NCBI GenBank assembly: GCA_047947115.1
Contig: CP170459.1
Location: 2,688,001-2,752,000 of the forward strand
Source of the DNA: Verrucomicrobiota bacterium
GTDB taxonomy: Bacteria; Verrucomicrobiota; Verrucomicrobiia; Limisphaerales; AAA164-E04
Reading direction: 5' to 3'
Length of the DNA: 64,000 nucleotides
Position numbers and translations under genes: made by a program. Of the stretch, positions 51,257 through 62,000 are shown piece after piece (position 1 is the first letter of the stretch; each line of letters opens with the position of its first letter). The notes under the pieces were generated by a model that ran no database searches, was not told where the DNA came from, and saw nothing but the letters and a program-made list of their open reading frames with translations.

Positions 51257-53095
51257 ATGAGCTTTTCAAAATCGACCTTCTTAGGTGCGGCGCTAGGATT
51301 GGGGCTTTCCCAGTTCGCGCAGGATTCAAATGCAGGTCTATTCAAAATAGACTTCGGGCATCTTCAAAACGAAGCTCCCATATTGGAATATGAAATCGAC
51401 TATTTCGATGGGGAAGTTTTTGGTGGACCTGAGGAAATCGATTCCCAGCCGGCAGAGCCTTTGACCGATTGGGATGTGATTCCAACCTTTACCTTTGCCG
51501 ACCCCAATGCGGAAGTGACCGAAGGAAGCGCCAGTCTCATGGGGGAAGCGAACGAAGCCGGCACCGAAGTCACCTGGTCCTTGCGTGATTTTTCCGAATC
51601 GGGCAGCGACAGTGATGTCACCATGACCATTCTGGACAACACGGCATTGCCTCCTGCGATGCTCGGGATGACTGCCAACAACCCAACCCACGAAGGTTTC
51701 AAATATGTGGATTTTGACGGGAACGCCATCCCACTGCCGCAATACCAACATGTCCCGGAAATTATTTATGACGGTGTCCTTGTTCCATTTGTGGTGAAGG
51801 ATGATTATCTCTACCGGAATCCGGACAATGCTGGAACCGAGTCCTTGATGCGTTTTGGAAATCTTGATCCTGGCTTTTACAAGGTCACCGTGTTTGAGGG
51901 GCGAACCACTGATGGCAATGGTCGATTCGGAAAAGTGTGGGCAGGTGATATCAACGGCTCCAACCATCCTGACGAACAGAACACTGGCAATTATGCCGGT
52001 ATCTATGATTCCGGGGAAATCGCCCCACAAGGACAGCCACGCTCCGTGGTGGTTGAAGTCAAGGCTGGCGAATATCTGTGGTTTGCTGAAATGGAGGATA
52101 ACTCCGGTGGCATTAGCGGCATGATCGTTCGTTCTGTTGATTTCCCACCTCCTCCCGCCGATGTGGCCACATCACCCGGTTTGTTCAAGATTGATTTTGG
52201 CCATCATGAAAATGATAAAGAAGGTGTGGAAGCGCTTTCAGATTGGAACGTGATTCCCACCTGGACATTCAGTGATCCCAACAGCGATGTCGCAGAGGGA
52301 AGCTCCAGCCTTGAAGGCACCGCCAATGCCGCTCAAACCGAAGTCACCTGGGCATTGACCGACTTCTCAAATGACAAGAATGCCAACGTGACCATGACTA
52401 TCATGGACAATGCAGCCTTGACAGCAGCCACAGGGCAGCCTCCTGCATTGGGGCAGATCTCCAACAATCCAACGCTCGAAAAATATGAAGGCCATTACGA
52501 TGGGGTTTTCATTCCTGCCATCGTCAAAAACGACTACAACTATCGCAATCCGGATACTGCCGGCTCCGAGCTTTTGATGCGTTTCGATGGACTGAAGCCC
52601 GGGACGTACAACGTGACGGTTTTCGAAGGTCGCACGACAGATGGCAACGGCCGATTCGGTAAAGTCTGGGTGGATGATATGAGTGGCGGCAACGCCCCTG
52701 CTGAACAGAACACCGGAAACTATGCCGGTATGGTCAACCCAGGAAGCGGTGCTGTGATTGCTCCTGCCGGAAACCCTCAGACCGTCACCGTCAATCTTGG
52801 CGAAGGACAGCATCTCTGGTTTGCTGAAATGGAAGACAACTCGGGTGGTATCAGCGGATTGATCATCCGTGGTGTCAGCGGAGGCAGCACCGGCGGTGGT
52901 GATCCCGAGCCGGGAGGTGGCCCTGCCAATGTGGCGATTTCTGCCTCGACGGACAAGGTGACCCTTTCATGGGAGGGTACGGGCGCTCTGCAAAAAGCAG
53001 ATGCCGTGACTGGTCCCTGGAGCAATGTAGCCGGAGCCACCAGTCCATATGAGGCTGCCGCTACCGGGGCGGCAGCATTCTTCCGAGTGCGATAA
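51257..53095 (+). CDS. Exported acidic protein with two tandem repeats (about 230-270 aa) and C-terminal sorting-like domain
   Basis: Signal peptide; repeats GLFKIDFGH...VTVFEGRTTDGNGRFGKVW...LWFAEMEDNSGGISG start at about 51335 and 52178; Gly/Pro linker; ends LSWEG...LQKADAVTGPW...FFRVR. Confidence 0.8.
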   Translation: MSFSKSTFLGAALGLGLSQFAQDSNAGLFKIDFGHLQNEAPILEYEIDYFDGEVFGGPEEIDSQPAEPLTDWDVIPTFTFADPNAEVTEGSASLMGEANEAGTEVTWSLRDFSESGSDSDVTMTILDNTALPPAMLGMTANNPTHEGFKYVDFDGNAIPLPQYQHVPEIIYDGVLVPFVVKDDYLYRNPDNAGTESLMRFGNLDPGFYKVTVFEGRTTDGNGRFGKVWAGDINGSNHPDEQNTGNYAGIYDSGEIAPQGQPRSVVVEVKAGEYLWFAEMEDNSGGISGMIVRSVDFPPPPADVATSPGLFKIDFGHHENDKEGVEALSDWNVIPTWTFSDPNSDVAEGSSSLEGTANAAQTEVTWALTDFSNDKNANVTMTIMDNAALTAATGQPPALGQISNNPTLEKYEGHYDGVFIPAIVKNDYNYRNPDTAGSELLMRFDGLKPGTYNVTVFEGRTTDGNGRFGKVWVDDMSGGNAPAEQNTGNYAGMVNPGSGAVIAPAGNPQTVTVNLGEGQHLWFAEMEDNSGGISGLIIRGVSGGSTGGGDPEPGGGPANVAISASTDKVTLSWEGTGALQKADAVTGPWSNVAGATSPYEAAATGAAAFFRVR

Positions 53096-53120: not shown

Positions 53121-53150
53121 AAAGGTCGGACCGATAGGTCCGACCTTTTT
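53121..53150 (+). terminator. Intrinsic terminator
   Basis: AAAGGTCGGACC-GATA-GGTCCGACCTTTTT perfect hairpin with T-tract. Confidence 0.85.
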
Positions 53151-53205: not shown

Positions 53206-53934
53206 CTATTTTCCTGTCCCCAGTGGATGCCATTGATCCACTGGATTCGGATCTGAAGCATAGGTGGTTTCAAACCTTTCAACGGACGCATGTCCGTCCG
53301 CATATCCATAGACGGATCGATCATCCTTTCCATGCCTGTCTTTGTCGACCGAGGATGTCATGCCCTGATCCCAGAAATGTGCCATGATGTGATCGGCTCC
53401 ATCGGCGACTTCACCTAACAGAATGGTTTCGGTCGGTTGGGGGAGGGAAGTTTGCTTCCTCCATGTCTTGGGACGCCCACGGTAGTCATCGGCTTCTTCC
53501 AGTTCGAAGTAAACATTCAACCCATAACTCCATCGGGCAAGCTTTCCTGCTTTGGGGCATCTGAACACACCGTTGTGAAGTGCTGACATGCCCTCGGATG
53601 ATTGGAGTGCTTCCAGCCCGACATAAGGCCGGACCGTGATTTCCCATGGGGGTTGATGATAGGCGAAGGAAGAGTGCTGACTTCTGGGGAACGTGTCTTC
53701 GAAATCATCGGCATACATACGGATGCCAAGACTCAAATGGCGGATGTTATTAAGACATTGAATCCGTGAGGCACTGGTTTTTGCCTTGCTCAGTGCCGGA
53801 AGCAGCATGCCTGCCAAAATGGCAATAATGGCTATGACGACCAGCAATTCGATGAGTGTGAAACCGGAGCGCACGCACTTTTTATGAAAGCAAGTGCACC
53901 CATTCTGATCGGATTTGAATCGCATTAGATTCAT
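53206..53934 (-). CDS. Prepilin-type N-terminal cleavage/methylation domain protein with H-Xn-DG C-terminal motif
   Basis: [44 protein letters not shown]...YADGHA; ATGA overlap with the upstream gene. Confidence 0.9.
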
Positions 53935-54770
53935 TCTGCTTCTTCGTGTGATACCAGGCGAAAGAACATTCCTTGATACGAATGGTCCAGAATAACCGTG
54001 GCGTTTCCATCAATCATCACCGGCGTTTGATGCATGGGTTGCCATTCTCCTGACTCAAGATCTGTGGTCGACTGAAGATGGTAATGCCCGACAGGCTGTG
54101 GCCAACTTAGTACGATTTTCTGTGAAATACCTAATGCCGGAACGACGTCCGAATGCTCGGCTGTCCATAAAAGGGTGAAGGTGATTCCTCCGATGTCTGC
54201 TCGTCGTTTCCCTGAGTCCAGATCCACGACAAAGGCTTCGAAATCAGCCGACAATGGGCCGCTGCCTTGAAGCGCTGCGAAGGCCGGATGAAACATGCGC
54301 ATATCCCATTCGAAGATCTTGCTGGAATCATGTGTGCCGAACATGGGGGTCCAGATTTGTTCGTCATCACTGATGCTTCGATAGGTGTAGGCCTCCAAAC
54401 CGTGATCTGCTGAAACCAATTGGATCCAAATCGCCGTCCCAAGTGGGAGCAGATCGCTGGCTCCGTCCATGACAAAGCCGTATTGTCGATTGAATGCTTT
54501 CCCCTGGTGGTCGGGATCCAGGTCCTCATACCAAGGGGAGGTTGGATGGAAGTGCATGTCGGGATGACTTTCCTCCAAAGGTGTCAAATGGGGAATTTCG
54601 GAAGGCATGGTCACCATCAAGTGACCGTGTTCAGCCATATAACGAATGGCGGGCATGACCATGCCTCCCTGCATGGGGACTGAACCAAGTTGCGTTTCCT
54701 GTGCCTGTAAGTTGACGACAGTTGAAGCCGCAATAAGGGTCGATGTGACGATAAATGTGCTTAAATTCAT
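53931..54770 (-). CDS. Exported Met/His-rich hypothetical protein with C-terminal sorting-like domain
   Basis: Signal peptide; [38 protein letters not shown]-terminal LSW...LQSTTDL...W...FFRL. Confidence 0.75.
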
Positions 54771-54920
54771 GTATATTTATGGTTTTGTTTGATTTTTAAT
54801 GGCTTGAAGCCTGCGAGTCCTCGGGTGATGACTGCAGATGTCGCCTCGTGGCCCTACCGATTCAAAGGAGGCCAGGGTACACGAAACTATGTAGAGGCTT
54901 GGTTGCCTCCAATGTGTTGA

Positions 54921-55301
54921 TCACGACAAAACCAAACGGGGAGGGGGAAGGTCGGGAGGCGCGCGTAACGTTGTGAACCCGCGCACCACAGGAGAGGTGT
55001 CTTTCTGGACATTGGGTGCCATCAGAGCAATGGCAGATCCCTGGTGAAAGAGGTCCAGTTTGATGTTGGATTTGAGGAAGTCTTGATGTGATTCCTGTTT
55101 CTTACCTTCCCGGACGAGTCGGCAGATTTCGCAGGAAGTTTCGGAATCAAAAGTTTTTGATATGGCGCTGATCAAGGATCGATCTTGGGAAAAATCCAGG
55201 ATCATGTTCGCCCACCCAATTGTCTGCAACAGCCCCCAATGGCCACCAATACTGATGGTCAGGCTTACGACAACGATGAATCTGGCGAACAAGTGACGCA
55301 C
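54921..55301 (-). CDS. DUF2946-like small protein (N-terminal hydrophobic segment, CxxC, Pro-rich RAPP C-terminus)
   Basis: GGHWGLLQTIGWANM, FDxxxxCEIC, LRAPPDLPPPR. Confidence 0.7.
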   Translation of the reverse strand: MRHLFARFIVVVSLTISIGGHWGLLQTIGWANMILDFSQDRSLISAISKTFDSETSCEICRLVREGKKQESHQDFLKSNIKLDLFHQGSAIALMAPNVQKDTSPVVRGFTTLRAPPDLPPPRLVLS

Positions 55302-55403: not shown

Positions 55404-55715
55404 CTAAGCTGCGCTTAGAGGACGTATGCGTTTTACATCTTTGTGGATCGCTTTGCTGGCGTTCCATAGATCAACTGCTCGTTGTGCGTTTAGCCAGAAT
55501 TCAGGGCTATTGCCAAAAAGTCGCGCAAGCCGCAATGCCATCTCTGGACTTATTGATCGCCGTTCCCGTAAAAGTTCGTTAATGGACTGGCGTGACACGC
55601 CAATCGCATTCGCCAAACCGGAAACGGAAAGTTCGAAATCCGGCAAATAGTCTTCTCGCAACATCTCTCCTGGATGCGTCGGTCGGCGTTTGATTCCTGT
55701 GTTTGCTATTCCCAT
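55404..55715 (-). CDS. higA: HigA family antitoxin (HTH)
   Basis: PTHPGEMLREDYL, GVSRQSINEL, ISPEMALRLARLFGNSPEFWLNAQ. Confidence 0.93.
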   Translation of the reverse strand: MGIANTGIKRRPTHPGEMLREDYLPDFELSVSGLANAIGVSRQSINELLRERRSISPEMALRLARLFGNSPEFWLNAQRAVDLWNASKAIHKDVKRIRPLSAA

Positions 55716-55728
55716 GGCATCTTTTTTA

Positions 55729-56010
55729 TTAGTGATAATCACAGACTTCTACTTCGTATGCATCACCATCTTTAAATCTGAAACATATCCTCCACTGATC
55801 GTTGATGAAAATGGCATGCTGACCCTTTCTATCCCCGGCAAGGGCATGCAGTCGATTTCCTGGAGGGGAACGCAGATCGTCTAATTTGGATGCCAAGTCC
55901 ACATACTCAAGCTTTCTGCCGGCACGTTTTGCAACATCAGCAGGGAAGCGTTTTGCTTTCCCTGATTCATATAACTCCTTCGTGCGTCGATCAGCAAAGG
56001 TTGTGATCAC
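55729..56010 (-). CDS. higB: HigB (RelE/ParE superfamily) toxin
   Basis: ITTFADRRT, DLRSPPGNRLHALAGDRKGQHAIFINDQWRICFRF, EVCDYH; toxin-first gene order. Confidence 0.93.
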   Translation of the reverse strand: MITTFADRRTKELYESGKAKRFPADVAKRAGRKLEYVDLASKLDDLRSPPGNRLHALAGDRKGQHAIFINDQWRICFRFKDGDAYEVEVCDYH

Positions 56011-56044
56011 TGCCAAAGTGTAATGTATGGCGTGACAGTGTCAA
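56011..56044 (-). promoter_or_regulatory. higBA sigma70 promoter with overlapping palindromic operator
   Basis: Minus strand TTGACA-N16-TACACT, then 6 nt to the GTG start; imperfect palindrome TGTCACG-N5-CATTACA between the boxes. Confidence 0.7.
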
Positions 56045-56075: not shown

Positions 56076-59000
56076 TTACGGCGCTATCGTCCACGGTCCG
56101 TTCACCGTGGGTGCCGTTTCCAGTGGTCCTTCCACCTGGATGAGGATGGTTGTTGGATCTTCTCCAAGGATGATCAGGTTTCGACCACGATAGAATCGGG
56201 CAGCCTCTGTGGCTTCGATGGAGAGTGTGCGAATGCTTGGTCCGACGACGGGTCCGTCGCATTCGTCCGGGATGCCGTTTCCGTCCAGATCATCGACAAA
56301 GCCCAGGGCAATTTCGTCCGCATCGAGGATGCCGTTCATGTTGCAGTCACCACTGCCGAATGGATCGCATTCGTCCGGTTTCATGTCGTCATTCAGATCA
56401 TTGGAAAATCCCGATTGAATGTCGCATCGATCCGGAATGCCGTTGCCGTTGCAATCGGCGACCAGACCTTCGGTAATGGCAAGGATGTCGTTGACCCCGT
56501 CTCCGTCGCAGTCTTCACCGCTCGGAATGCTTACCATGTATTCGCGAATGCTTTGGGTTTCTCCGTTTGCAAAGGTGGCGACTAGGTGGCCGATGCCGGA
56601 TGCGTGCGGTTGGAGTTGGATGCTGCGGAACTCGCCGCTTGCTTCATGTGTGATGGGTGTCGGACCGGATATCAGTTCACCATTTTCATTCACCCACGCA
56701 GTCAACACTGCCGCTTCGTCCGCTCCTTCGATCCATGCAAGGAGATAGGTGTTGATCCCATCGATTTGTAACGGCAGGACATTGATGTCGTTGCCCGGTG
56801 TGAATAGTGTCGTGGATGGCATGGGGGTAAACTGGCCGCTGTCTGCATCCCATTGATGCAAGGTGATCGATTGATCTTCCATGATGCCAGCCGTGATCAG
56901 ATTTCCCTGATGGCCCTGGTGCACGTCGAAGGGTGAGCGAATGTTTGAAAGAGCGAGACTTGGGGACGGCCAAGTCGCTCCATTCCAGTCCAGAGTATAA
57001 AGTTCATTGGCAGGATTGGAGACGCTGAGTTTGGCGGCGATTTCATCCACCGCGTTGAGTTCATAATGGACCCATTCACCGTTTGCGAGCGCCAGATCGG
57101 GTCCCACCCAGACCCCGTTAATAAAGGACATGGTATGGAGGGAACGGTTCCGACCCAGCGGACCTTCATCTGTGATGAAAAATGCCGCCATGGCACCGGT
57201 GCCGATGGATGTCAGGTCCAATTGATAAATGGCGTCTTCGGAGGACATCAATTCCACGGGGGTGCTCCATTGTCGACCGGAAGGATCCGATTGCAGTGAT
57301 TTCAAAACCGTCGAGGGGTAGGGGGTGAGGATATCGGTGTCTTCCAGTTCGCTCCAGACGACCAACCATGAACCGTCTGCAAGTTGTTCGGAAGCGACGG
57401 AGACCATGCCATGGGACCGGGCGAGTTCCTGGGGTGCCTGCCATCCATTGTCAGTCATTTGACTCATCAGGAGGGTCATTTCACCTGTTTCTGGATCGGT
57501 GCCGGTGTAGACCAGAGAGGTGCCGTTTCCTGATGAAAAGTCCATGTGACCCGCATCATAGAAATCCTTCACGAGTGTTCCACCCGTGCCGACGAATTGT
57601 GACGGCAGGGCGGTCATGGGAGTGATGATGATGGATGAGGTGTTTAATGGAGTTAAATCAAAGGTCGGCACGGAAGCACGTTCGATGTTGAAAGTAAGCA
57701 GGTCGTATTGCCAGGATTTGCTGATACTGGTGACGTACAGGTTTAACTTGGCTGAGAAGACAAAACTGATGGCTCCTGTGATTTTCTTGACGAGAGGTTG
57801 TCGCCCCAGATCGTTGATATCGATAAACACTCCGTCCACATCCGACTGTCCTTTTGGGGCTCCGAGTTGAACCTTGCCAGATGCAGTGAGTGAATTATTG
57901 GCGATGCTTCCCTTGAGTCCCAACGCTACCCGGACGATTAATTTCTTCTCATTGGAGATCTTGGTGTTGTCCTTGATATCGGTGGCCACGTCATTGACCG
58001 TGCCAATCATGTTGTATCCGGGCGTGGTGGGGGGCGGATCGTTCCGGCCTGTCGTGGCCCCGAGATCGCGTCCTTTGGGGATGCTGTGCTCGAACTTGAC
58101 GGTCACCTTGGCACCCGTGGTCACTTCAAAAAATGCTTCCAGGCTGAGTGCGGTATAACCAAAAATATCCTCGATGGCTTCATTGAGTTCCTGAATGGGC
58201 TTACCGTATGGCAGCAGTTCGATGACGGGGGTAATATCGACACCGACACCCAGGTCAACGGTTCCCTGAGCTTCGAGGATGCCTGTGGACATGGACAGGC
58301 GATTCACGCCGGCGCTTCCTGAGTCAAAGGTCTGGCAGTTGGCGAACTTTGCGGAGATGCTCACCTTGGGCCCGCTGAAATTCACTCGATCACCGACGAG
58401 TTCCTTTGCTCGGGCCGCCAGTTTGGGAATGTATTTGTCCTTGGATCTTTCTTTGTCAATTTCGGCTTCATTGGCAAGAACGACCGCAATACATGCCTGA
58501 TTATCGCCCCCGGAAACCTCAAATTCTGCATCCACTCCCGCACCGCTGATCTTTAAGCCCATATATTTTGCAGCAAGCGACATCGGACCCCGCTGAGGGC
58601 TGTCTTCGCCGATGGGGAGTTCGATGCCCAGTACGTATTTGTAGGTTATATAGAGATTGTCTGCCAATAGATCCTCGGTGGGATTGAAGACATACCGGCT
58701 TTCGCTATCAGGCGCGGTGTTGATGGGCACCACCCCGATACGTGCTTCTATTTTTCCGGATTGAGCCAGTTTCAGGAATCGATCCCCAAAATTCTTGTTC
58801 AGTTCGCCGGTTCCTTGTCTTTGGGTGGTAGCTTGGGCTTCCTCGTCCTCATCCTCTTCAGGAGCACCAACGCTTGGAAGTGTGGATGCGGCTCCGACAA
58901 CTTCCAGAATGTTGGCAGCCCAACGTGGCATGGTCATCCCTCTCAACGGGGCGGCTTTTTTGGGACCATCGTCGCCGGGGACATCCGGTAGCTCATAATC

Positions 59001-62000
59001 ATGGAATGTCACTCCACCGTTTTTGGAGATCACCACCGCCATGGGTTTGAATTCACCTGCCGGCAGTTCCCAGAGTCGCAGTTTTCCTTCGAACTCATCA
59101 TCCTCGTTGATATCTCCTTTGAGGGCAATTTTATGAACCACATAATAAGGTTCACCATCTTTCTGTGCGCTGGATATTTCCGCCAGCCATTCCCGTGTCG
59201 TGACATAATTCACCGTTGATGGAATGCTTAAATCCCAAACTTGTTCATCGTTCACGCTTGGATTTTTGAAGAAGCGCTTGTCCACCAGCCAAACCTCTTC
59301 GATTTCGTCTCTGACTCTGCTTGTTTGATCAGGTGTGGCTTGTTCGTTTTCGCCCACAAAACCTGGTAATGTCAGCGAATAGCTTTGTGGGTCGGCTGCA
59401 ACTTTCCAGGTGGCAGTCAGTTTCCCGCGGCTTGCTTCCGGATTCAGACCTACTGAACTCAGGTTGCTGTCGGTAGCTTTGGTAACTCCGGGGATGAACA
59501 TGCCAAATCGGTTCAATGTAAACTTGGTGACCTCCGGTCCCGGGACTTTGCTCATGGTCAGGTTTTGATCAAGAAAATCCGGTTCGTCGAGATTGGTGGG
59601 CGCATATTTGATTCGGAGTGGTTTGTATCCTCTTCGGTTGATGTCCAGAAAAGTGGTCTGAGGAACAAGTCGCGCCACGGAAAATCGACCGTTGGCATCG
59701 GTAATGGCATTGCTGATGGGATTGCCATAACGGTTGCGTGCCACTATGGCGGCGCCGGGAATGTTTTCTCCGTCCTCGCCTTTCAGCGTTCCCGTGATCA
59801 ACATGGCTCGTTGCATGTTTACGGTAAGCCTGAGCAATCTTGCTTCGGGATCGATCACTTCAACTTTGCTGGGAGGCCAGAAAGCATACGTCCATTGCCC
59901 CGGTTTCTGTTCGGCTCCAGAAGGGTAGGGATTTCCCGTGAATGTGGATGTTTCCCCTGCTGGAAGGGTTTGAGGTGGATTCCCGTTGAAGCTTACTGTC
60001 ACGTTTGGAATCTGGCGATTGGGATCACCTGTGCTGACGGCTCGAATATCCAATTGATAATTCTTCAGATTTCCAACCTGAGTGCTCCCTGCCGAATTTC
60101 CCAAATAGATGGGGGAATTTGCCAGGGAGAAATTGTCAAGCGGCCCACCTATGATCGCACGTTCCAGATTTGCCGGGCCCGCCCCACCAACTTTAAACCA
60201 ACTGGCATTTTGTAGCCAGACAATGTAGTTGCCCTTTGGAATACCTTCCCCAAAAGCATAGACGAACACTTTGTTTCCGGTTGCCGAACTCATGAAGAAT
60301 TCCGGTCGTTGAAGGCCATGGTATACATATCCGTCGTCTGGCCCATCGTAGCGTGAGCTTTCTATGAACACTTCCCCTTTGTATTTCCAATCTGCTTCGA
60401 TGTTGAATTGTTCCGTGCAATGGGAAATACCTGGAAAAAAGTAAGTAGGGGTGAACGGTTCGACTCGGGGCAACACTCCCGGAGCATCCCAGCCCTCGAT
60501 TGAAAACTGCACGGGGGGAGCGTCGTAATCTTCATGGATGAGTTCCAAGGTGTAGTCGCCGGGCAGCAGATATTTCATCAGGAAAAAATTGTCACTTCGC
60601 ATGGTTGTTTCCAGAGTGACTGGTCCTGTGACCCGGATGCGGGCATCGGTGGCCAGGAGGTGCTTGTAAGGAAATGTTTGGAGTCCGGTGCCGTCTTCGT
60701 TCATTCTGAGAACCTGGTTTCCGAAAGGTTCATTGGTTGTGTTGATTCGTCCGCCTGTATGGATGTAGTGCCGATGCACAAACAGATCCAATTGATAATG
60801 GTGGGATGAATCAAACCGCAATCCCGCCTTGTGGTGGCCGAATTCAAAATTGCCGTAAGGCCAGGTGTCGGGATAAGGCCACCCGGATTCCACGGGAGGG
60901 ATGCCGCCGGTCAAATCTCCGAATTCGACGTTGTGTCCTGCGTAGCCATTCATGGTCGGGATCTTTACCCCATAGATGCCGGGGAGAATGGTGGCGGTGT
61001 AATTGCCTGCTTCATCGGTGTCGACGCTCAATACTTTGTGCGTATCGTCCAACTGTTGAATGATTTGGTGTTCGATGAACTCGATGCCATCGTGAGCGAT
61101 TTGATAAAAGACACGGTTGGGTTCGGAATAACAAGGTTCGAAATCCAGATTGCCATTTGTGTCGGTGGCCCACAGGCGCCCTTGGATGGTGGCCGGAATG
61201 GGGTTCAGATCGATGAACGCGGTCTCTGTTTTCCCTGGATCCACTTCAGCATAGGTTTCTTGGGGGAAGAATTTGATGTGAAACGCCTCAGGACCTTGTA
61301 ATGGTCCTGACTGACTTGGAAGGTTTTGGAGTGTTGCTTCGTGCACGACCTGCAGCCAATACCTTCCAGGCATTAAATTTTCGAACAATACTTTGACGAA
61401 CAATCCATCCTCGTCCAGAGCGGTCATGGCCTCTCGCGTGATGCCTTCAGCACTGGAACCATCCACCCCTCGAAGTACAACGCGGGCGCCTTCCAGAATG
61501 TCCGTGTTCTCATAGGGTGAATCAAGGATCACCTCCACTTTGGTGGGCAACAAGTCGAGTTGGTGCTGATTTTTGCAAAACCACCCGCGGGTTGTTGCCG
61601 GATTTCGAATTCCTTGGGTTCATATCCCAGCTTGGCGACGGACAGTTTGTAAGGAATTCCCACCAAATTCGTATAGGCGTGTTTTCCGGCAGTGTCCGTT
61701 AACATGGTGGTTTGAGGTAGCACAACACTGTCGAATTGAAAATCGTAACCGGTCATCTGCAGCACCACATCACGCATCGGCGCGTTTTCCTCCTCATTGA
61801 CAGGGTTATATCCTTTGACCTCCACTTCCATGCCTGTGCGAATGGGTTTCATGTAAACGCCGGCCATGTGATCCCGAATCAGCCTGAGCTTGTCGCCTGC
61901 TATGGGGCCCAGGGACGGATCGGGTGTGTAGACGATATCTTCCCAACCGGTACGTCTCATGGTGAACCGATAGAATCCGTTCTCCAAAAACTGGATGGAT

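Follow-up and report, generated by a model that had tools for sequence, protein, structure and literature searches.

What is a small protein with a proline-rich tail doing at the head of an operon whose other products are a secreted protein and a pilin? The locus that raises this question lies in a 64,000-nucleotide stretch of contig CP170459.1 from a Verrucomicrobiota bacterium (the window, to whose positions all unprefixed coordinates refer) and comprises three minus-strand genes: gene 1, the leader; gene 2, a secreted surface protein; and gene 3, a pilin-like protein. An earlier note, drawn from the sequence alone, had proposed a metal-responsive leader controlling the other two. The open reading frames (ORFs) are where it placed them (55301-54921, 54770-53931 and 53934-53206), genes 2 and 3 overlap by ATGA as it reported, and CEIC (55133-55122), RAPP (54965-54954) and a 150-nt spacer are likewise found. 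We give an even chance to the reading in which the three genes are a conserved operon, the leader is a ribosome-stalling copper sensor, and the other two form a surface copper-capture pair that is on at low copper. Its parts differ in strength: the leader is very probably a cis-acting metal-responsive regulator and the sensed metal is probably copper, while expression at low copper is evenly balanced with its negation. The features are as follows.

54921..55301, minus strand: leader ORF, 126 amino acids, GTG start; hydrophobic N-terminal helix, H-W-x2-L-Q-x3-W-x2-M motif, CxxC and Pro-rich tail
55218..55283, minus strand: leader hydrophobic segment, residues 7-28, predicted signal anchor or signal peptide (Kyte-Doolittle)
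55203..55241, minus strand: conserved leader motif H21-W22...Q26...W30-x2-M33 (alignment of 150 leaders)
55122..55133, minus strand: leader CEIC (C57, C60), invariant
54954..54965, minus strand: leader RAPP, in this copy but not conserved
54936..54947, minus strand: leader PPPR (residues 119-122), conserved tail and predicted stall site, 61 residues past CxxC
54926..54934, minus strand: last leader codons, with a predicted 9-bp pairing to 54788-54780 just 5' of the gene 2 start
54771..54920, minus strand: structured spacer, 150 nt; the start region at its end is A-rich and lacks a Shine-Dalgarno match
54892..54911, minus strand: spacer hairpin 1 (folding against shuffles)
54843..54887, minus strand: spacer hairpin 2 (folding against shuffles)
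53931..54770, minus strand: gene 2, secreted protein, 279 amino acids; signal peptide about 1-23, beta-sandwich 24-208, recurrent C-terminal domain about 209-279
53206..53934, minus strand: gene 3, type IV pilin-fold protein of the DUF1559/H-Xn-DG kind, 242 amino acids
53121..53148, no strand assigned: 12-bp hairpin in the gap from the cassette to the convergent gene 51257-53095; classed as terminator-like on the plus strand

The leader is present in a single copy in the home genome, has no Pfam or NCBIfam match, and belongs to a family of 1604 representatives (50%-identity representatives, E<=0.001). We aligned 150 leaders, namely the query, four close relatives and 145 of the 149 other listed matches, four of odd length being omitted. 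W30, M33, C57 and C60 are invariant in all 150, and most homologues read H-P-C-x-x-C, with His preceding CxxC in 119. The N-terminal hydrophobic segment proposed earlier is supported by hydropathy, residues 7-28 giving Kyte-Doolittle 19-residue means of 1.35-1.7 in query and family alike. The earlier note had also taken CxxC and RAPP together as the signature of the leader; CxxC held throughout, but RAPP occurs in just 3/150 homologues and in 1/80 leaders of the cassette loci described below. Relatives at 67-71% identity carry RCSPP or RRSPP in its place, and RAPP was rejected as a family motif. The conserved tail is instead P116-P/x-x-P-P-P-R122: 87/150 leaders contain PPxPPP, and 131/150 have PP with R or K after it among their final 12 residues.

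The distance between CxxC and the last proline is 59-68 residues, with a median of 61, in the 142/150 leaders where it is readable. Because full-length matches favour equal lengths, we measured it again on leaders picked solely via gene 2, and 76/80 of these fall at 59-67. The linker varies in sequence although its length is fixed, a combination that would fit a nascent-chain ruler.

GTDB loci were picked by gene 2 alone (best 80 of 115 confirmed), and in 80/80 a leader lies directly upstream of gene 2 on the same strand, so that the neighbourhood conservation which the earlier note wished to see checked is present; two of these leaders are split by frameshifts, and in one locus a regulator ORF lies within the spacer. 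Of a further set of loci with the Met-type gene 2 domain, which may overlap the first, 30/30 have the leader. The pilin follows gene 2 directly in 72/80 loci, three of the eight misses being at a contig edge. A survey of 301 genomes of the order found gene 2 in 58 and the pilin subfamily in 56, with both in 55, gene 2 only in 3, the pilin only in 1 and neither in 242; 51/58 pilin matches are within 1 kb of gene 2. The nearest gene 2 relatives are marine Verrucomicrobiota of the genus containing SCGC AAA164-E04, and cultured Limisphaera strains also have the cassette (loci L066 and L080). Typical cassettes occur in seven records titled Bifidobacteriaceae, Bifidobacterium or Akkermansia (L025, L038, L055, L059, L067, L072, L076); their sequences group with Limisphaerales, and the titles are probably mislabelled.

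The company kept by the cassette and by other leaders points to copper, the context that the earlier note had assumed. SCO or CusF-SCO genes follow the cassette in 13/80 loci (11 confirmed by Pfam) and HMA genes in 4/80, making 15 loci for SCO, CusF and HMA combined, against a background of 3 SCO matches in the whole 6.08 Mb home genome. For these counts 63 of the 80 listed downstream ORFs were scanned, those dropped being mostly short. Beyond the cassette, a sample of 151 genomes of the phylum yielded 41 leader matches in 33 genomes, and the 39 regions examined cover 40 leader matches outside the home genome. The first gene behind these 40 leaders encodes a TonB receptor in 10 (three with the OprC-type copper receptor TIGR01778 as best match), a MetA-type barrel in 13 (6 by Pfam match, 7 assigned by eye), TonB in 3 and an extracytoplasmic function (ECF) sigma factor in 3 (one of each scanned), a gene 2 family member in 5 and a beta-propeller in 1; 3 are unresolved, and a tandem leader pair before cytochrome c, SCO and a TonB receptor accounts for 2. 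The leader-family cargoes are thus mostly importers. The earlier note had contrasted the cargo here with a TonB receptor, which is right for this locus but not across the family.

Two of these arrangements deserve a description of their own. In L115 (G123:C6:67000-75000) the tandem leaders are followed by a small exported protein and then by cytochrome c, SCO and the TonB receptor. In L133, L136 and L144 (genomes G132, G093 and G111) the leader heads the ECF sigma gene, and a second copy in the same genomes precedes tonB; it may be that a sigma factor is gated there by a nascent-peptide sensor.

How does this leader relate to the copper-sensing leaders already described? CruR (Bp2923 of Bordetella pertussis, DUF2946/PF11162) has 45 +/- 2 residues from CXXC to RAPP, a 5-residue insertion spoils its regulation, fixed spacing being functionally required, and it acts by a Rho-dependent scheme (accessible portion of PMC9426467); its arrest is reported in the accessible portion of PMC12992588. 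Like CruR, the leader is first in its operon and has an export signal, CxxC, a fixed distance to a Pro-containing tail and copper-related genes downstream. Spacer lengths are alike too (family median 213 nt, CruR 162 nt), and the cargo list overlaps the neighbours of CruR homologues as far as these are given in that portion of PMC9426467. Unlike CruR, the window leader has 52 residues from CxxC to RAPP, the family tail is PPxPPPR rather than RAPP, there is an additional invariant Q/W/M motif, and the cargo here is a surface protein with a pilin. CutF of Rhodobacter capsulatus ends in PEPEGPPPRL (bioRxiv 2025.02.05.636593, available part); the leader shares with it the export signal, a Cys motif, the PPPRL tail and, in the window clade, a possible pairing with the start region, but has CxxC where CutF has CxxxC, spacers mostly >100 nt without a Shine-Dalgarno hairpin, and a cargo other than a multicopper oxidase (one lies two genes down in L207). 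All the features by which CutF-like proteins are recognised in the part of PMC9973294 available to us are present, namely <150 amino acids, PP in the last 15 residues, an export signal (judged here by hydropathy of residues 7-28) and a same-strand neighbour within <1000 nt, as is the position shared by CruR and CutF, first in an operon and upstream of copper-homeostasis genes. As in ApdP and ApdA (PMC12992588, same portion), RAPP here sits close to the C-terminus of a small exported protein, and by analogy the ribosome may stall at RAPP in the window leader too; RAPP is, however, not conserved in the leader family, and no sec or yidC gene follows.

Membership in DUF2946, for which the earlier note had suggested a profile search, did not hold. 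None of the 150 leaders reaches PF11162 at E<=0.1; in the 151 genomes of the phylum, none of 11 PF11162 matches coincides with the 41 leader matches; and the spacing from CxxC to RAPP differs. By these tests the leader is not a DUF2946 member. In a profile comparison, hhalign against a shallow set of six DUF2946-like sequences gave a 2% probability, with the CxxC stretch alone aligned, and the Atlas places DUF2946-named clusters at 0.90 with 90-98 shared features, which is a lead only. True DUF2946-like genes, with CxxC and RAPP, RGPP or CGPP tails, occur in other lineages of the phylum (L151-L154, L157, L160). The layout nevertheless resembles that of CruR and CutF and heads a conserved two-gene cargo, as the earlier note had it, and the likeliest reading of the cassette is a copper-responsive leader of CruR/CutF type that heads a so far undescribed cargo. 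That note did not know the combination as described, and our literature search, with subscription papers mostly outside its scope, likewise found no description of a surface-protein/pilin cassette under a leader; the supplement of PMC9426467, within the portion available, has one Kiritimatiella entry and no Verrucomicrobia name.

Gene 2 contains 5.4% Met, a share reached by 0.9% of 3329 long ORFs of the genome, and 5.7% His, a share reached by 4.4% of them. The description of this protein as rich in Met and His, taken from the earlier note, is therefore apt for this copy, but His richness was rejected as a trait of the family, whose mean is 1.9%. Among 104 homologues the kept residues are M33 (101), M37 (101), M39 (100, with His in 4), M101 (99), M159 (104) and H161 (104), and the remaining histidines are not kept; on this pattern of conservation the six are candidate metal ligands. 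Distant variants swap Met and His, giving M-x-H at both sites. In the predicted fold (pLDDT 92.6) a signal helix is followed by a beta-sandwich, and a small domain closes the C-terminus. This small domain matches four further positions of the genome, one of them at E 7e-9 and the other three weakly, and some relatives (L114, P0259) have PEP-CTERM in its stead; a sorting role fits both observations. No Pfam or NCBIfam family matches gene 2, and Foldseek returned nothing at E<=0.001. Like ZepA (All3515; accessible portion of PMC10957091) and choice-of-anchor M proteins (NF038134), gene 2 is secreted and C-terminally anchored, with metal binding predicted for it. Unlike ZepA, as far as that portion describes it, gene 2 has Met rather than His ligands, a leader rather than Zur control, a pilin partner and no significant profile match, the query itself matching neither NF040463 (ZepA) nor NF038134.

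The earlier note called gene 3 a prepilin-type H-Xn-DG protein with a DHIMAH segment, and the N-methylation motif (PF07963, above cut-off, E 1e-8), DHIMAH and RH...DGH are all there. The match to DUF1559 (PF07596) is weak, at 22.6 bits with a cut-off of 23.3, and TIGR04294 is not listed at E<=1, the motif being present as H-X11-DG. Each of the 19 best structural matches of a predicted model (pLDDT 92.9) is a type IV pilin or pseudopilin, the resemblance running along the whole model and the first match having Z 5.4, a root-mean-square deviation of 3.8 and 122 aligned residues; with its G|FxxxE N-terminus and modelled fold, gene 3 is predicted to be a member of this class. Like DUF1559/H-X9-DG proteins (PF07596, TIGR04294), it has the N-methylation helix, the type IV pilin fold and the RH...DGH end. 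It differs from other DUF1559-type paralogues in its invariant PRSxHS and DHxM (D181-H182-x-M184) and its linkage to gene 2: H87, H182, M184, H201 and H215 are invariant in 69/69 subfamily pilins, whereas the last His of DHIMAH is not conserved (His 35/69, Asn 32/69). The home genome has 85 pilin-motif ORFs, and of the 79/85 scored on the subfamily profile the window pilin reaches 308 bits and the other paralogues <=133, so by sequence comparison gene 3 appears to be a distinct orthologous subfamily tied to gene 2. Prepilin peptidase, secretins and assembly ATPases are encoded in the same genome. Two further pilin paralogues carry a DHTH motif (G000:C1:3284400-3285179 and 418219-419121).

Some relatives carry a second version of the cassette. 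In L065 and L078 a second leader precedes another pilin and surface proteins with His ligands, and we list this sister cassette as follows.

L065:6178-9085, L078:9442-11600 and L211-L240: sister cassette with the same leader family, a DH(F/Y)H pilin and a His-ligand domain

The His domain occurs in 79/301 genomes of the order, is absent from the home genome and matches choice-of-anchor M weakly (E 0.003-0.08). In its best 30 loci the adjoining pilin has DH(F/Y)H in 27/30 and a leader lies within 1.5 kb in 23/30; in the best 30 Met-domain loci the pilin has DHxM in 28/30. The ligand types of pilin and surface protein thus match, Met with Met and His with His. Met and His domains gave no match to each other in hhalign, and their kinship therefore rests on third-party fold hints. 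A single protein in L205 (4073-6787) fuses His and Met domains and lies between a DHFH pilin and a DHIM pilin. L202:1574-9867 and L203:1665-4955 have the order leader, pilin and proteins with tandem Met/His-swapped domains; both also carry a His domain stripped of its histidines, and CusB follows in L202.

How might such a cassette work? We propose that the nascent leader would enter the membrane via its N-terminal helix and that the PPPR tail would bring the ribosome to a pause when M33, C57 and C60 have already left the tunnel, 61 residues back. As long as Cu(I) is absent, this pause would last, the C-rich stretch would be covered and Rho kept off, and transcription would cross the 150-nt spacer, as in CruR; in the window clade the ribosome held there would, in addition, lay open the start region of gene 2. 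Binding of Cu(I) would end the pause and turn expression off. After secretion gene 2 would stay at the surface through its C-terminal domain and bind Cu(I) by way of Met/His pairs. Gene 3, once processed by prepilin peptidase, would take its place in a filament of the type II secretion or type IV pilus system, and there its His/Met site could collect copper or pass it on; alternatively, it might pilot the export of gene 2.

Both spacer hairpins given in the earlier note fold, the one at 54911-54892 with -10.6 kcal/mol (0/200 shuffles as good) and the one at 54887-54843 with -18.3 kcal/mol (6/200), and the folding z of the entire spacer is -3.4; an alignment of spacers from six close relatives had no conserved hairpin columns beyond the nearest pair. 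Across the cassette loci spacers measure 72-679 nt, with a median of 213, and a Shine-Dalgarno match precedes gene 2 in only 11/73, which argues against a general CutF-type hairpin and fits the Rho-dependent scheme of CruR. Sequence evidence of a rut site is weak: a C-rich stretch runs over 55100-54920, silent positions in leader tails lean to pyrimidines in 53/74 loci, and YC dinucleotides after the stop number 12.2 per 60 nt, compared with 10.1 in controls, the loci being related to one another. Rho and elongation factor P are encoded in the home genome; two rho-like genes (G000:C1:4133302-4134540 and 5683551-5684636) lie one above and one just below the TIGR00767 cut-off. Metatranscriptome contigs cover the leader in 8/8 runs and gene 2 in 2/8, and none spans the spacer; contigs from two studies end at 54925 and 54915 without loose ends. 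Termination after the leader would fit these ends, which we do not count as support, contigs being unable to rank genes. A promoter scan found no site 5' of the leader.

The direction of the switch is the point at which CutF offers a different answer. By its logic copper would induce the stall, the stalled ribosome would open the gene 2 start, and the pair would be a surface sink at copper excess, which we consider unlikely. The CutF-like PPPRL tail speaks for it, as does the pairing at this locus of the last leader codons with the -18..-10 region, where blocking a ribosome footprint lifts predicted start accessibility from 0.51 to 0.82 (from 0.46 to 0.67 in L003). The pairing is not general, however. 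Cognate compared with swapped leader-end/start duplex energies gave p 0.054 (74 loci), and accessibility gains >0.15 appear in only 5/68 loci, with spacers >300 nt left out; six loci with frameshifts or unsure starts had been named for exclusion beforehand. General pairing of leader ends with the downstream start is thus not supported, and we treat it as a trait of the window clade. In L063:5900-6010 and L074:5905-6015 (Kiritimatiellia) the Pro-Pro-Arg codons and the gene 2 Shine-Dalgarno region share 9 nt of complementarity; constrained folding gave no accessibility gain there. Efflux genes stand directly behind the cassette in L013, L033, L068 and L202, and L207 has a multicopper oxidase and CusB, five loci in all that fit induction by copper; CusB/CusA-type efflux follows in 3/80. 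On-at-low-copper is favoured over this alternative because importers make up most cargoes and efflux neighbours are fewer than those of the SCO/CusF type. Alongside these efflux and oxidase genes, several observations weigh against a low-copper sensor operon. The window leader has Thr where 119/150 have His before CxxC; C>G skew, tried as a rut signal, was rejected as not significantly above controls (p 0.12 after the stop, p 0.18 at silent sites); gene 2 has no solved relative at Z>=8, the best, at 6.2, being generic beta-sandwiches that include cupredoxin domains; the cassette is patchy (58/301 genomes of the order); and the loci are mutually related, so that their counts overstate independence. 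The contrast between Met and His cassettes is likewise essentially one evolutionary comparison, not sixty, and the leader motif also heads His-type cassettes and ECF sigma genes, so that the motif alone names no metal.

This last point bears on whether the leader senses zinc, nickel, cobalt or several metals, the pair then being a general scavenger like cyanobacterial ZepA. Leaders of the two cassette types interleave in a quick tree with many open forks and have their invariant residues in common, so that the sensor gives no sign of two metals. The weak choice-of-anchor M match of the His domain is consistent with that idea, as are the resemblance of the Atlas model of gene 2 to that actinobacterial surface-anchored fold (TM 0.61) and the 3/104 gene 2 homologues that match NF040463 at E 0.03 or worse. 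The NF040463 matches are at noise level, however, NF038134 is matched by 0/104, and a search of two genomes for the ZepA family gave no match, controls included, and is uninformative. SCO, CusF and OprC neighbours are copper-specific, and no zinc-uptake genes were seen among the 63 downstream proteins scanned. Thioether-rich (Met-rich) sites without Cys or acids, moreover, favour Cu(I), and we regard a metal other than copper as improbable. The product of the first gene could also be a small membrane protein that is stable, such as a chaperone for metals or a monitor of secretion, instead of a metal-gated cis regulator. Conservation of its N-terminal 60 residues is far stronger than in DUF2946 and suggests a folded domain, and RAPP-type peptides also monitor secretion (PMC12992588, accessible portion). 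Against this, the leader always comes first, with a long spacer behind it; the cargoes it heads are unrelated; a duplicate stands before a second cassette (L065, L078, L115); and its fixed Cys-to-Pro distance is what a ruler would require; a stable protein is accordingly very unlikely. The copper-sensing leader thus remains our preferred reading.

Around the cassette, a HigBA toxin-antitoxin pair (PF05015, TIGR02607) lies immediately 5' of the leader at 55404-56016 on the minus strand, and a metatranscriptome contig that joins 55418 to 56004 points to a relative without this module. The genes at 51257-53095 (plus strand) and 56076-61553 (minus strand) encode large unannotated secreted proteins whose short C-terminal domain resembles that of gene 2, and the protein at 51257-53095 contains an internal repeat. 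The 12-bp hairpin at 53121..53148, 3' of the pilin gene, is likely to be the end of the operon.

What would this mean for the Verrucomicrobiota? Genomes of the Planctomycetes-Verrucomicrobia-Chlamydiae (PVC) group hold dozens of DUF1559/H-X9-DG pilin-like proteins each, and in the literature searched we found no function assigned to them. Through the cassette one pilin subfamily acquires a named partner together with a candidate metal and switch, and is thus directly testable. The cassette also adds to the copper-sensing leaders a large unannotated family with another ruler length and tail, which would escape both RAPP-based and DUF2946-based surveys and can reveal whether PPPR tails switch genes on or off with copper. 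Tentatively, the Verrucomicrobiota may own nascent-peptide metal sensors that run filament-based surface metal capture, through ligand-matched hand-over pairs of pilin and surface-anchored protein on type II secretion or type IV pilus filaments, in Cu(I) and second-metal versions. If this wider reading is true, it would represent a new copper acquisition route and provide the first function for a DUF1559-type pilin subfamily.

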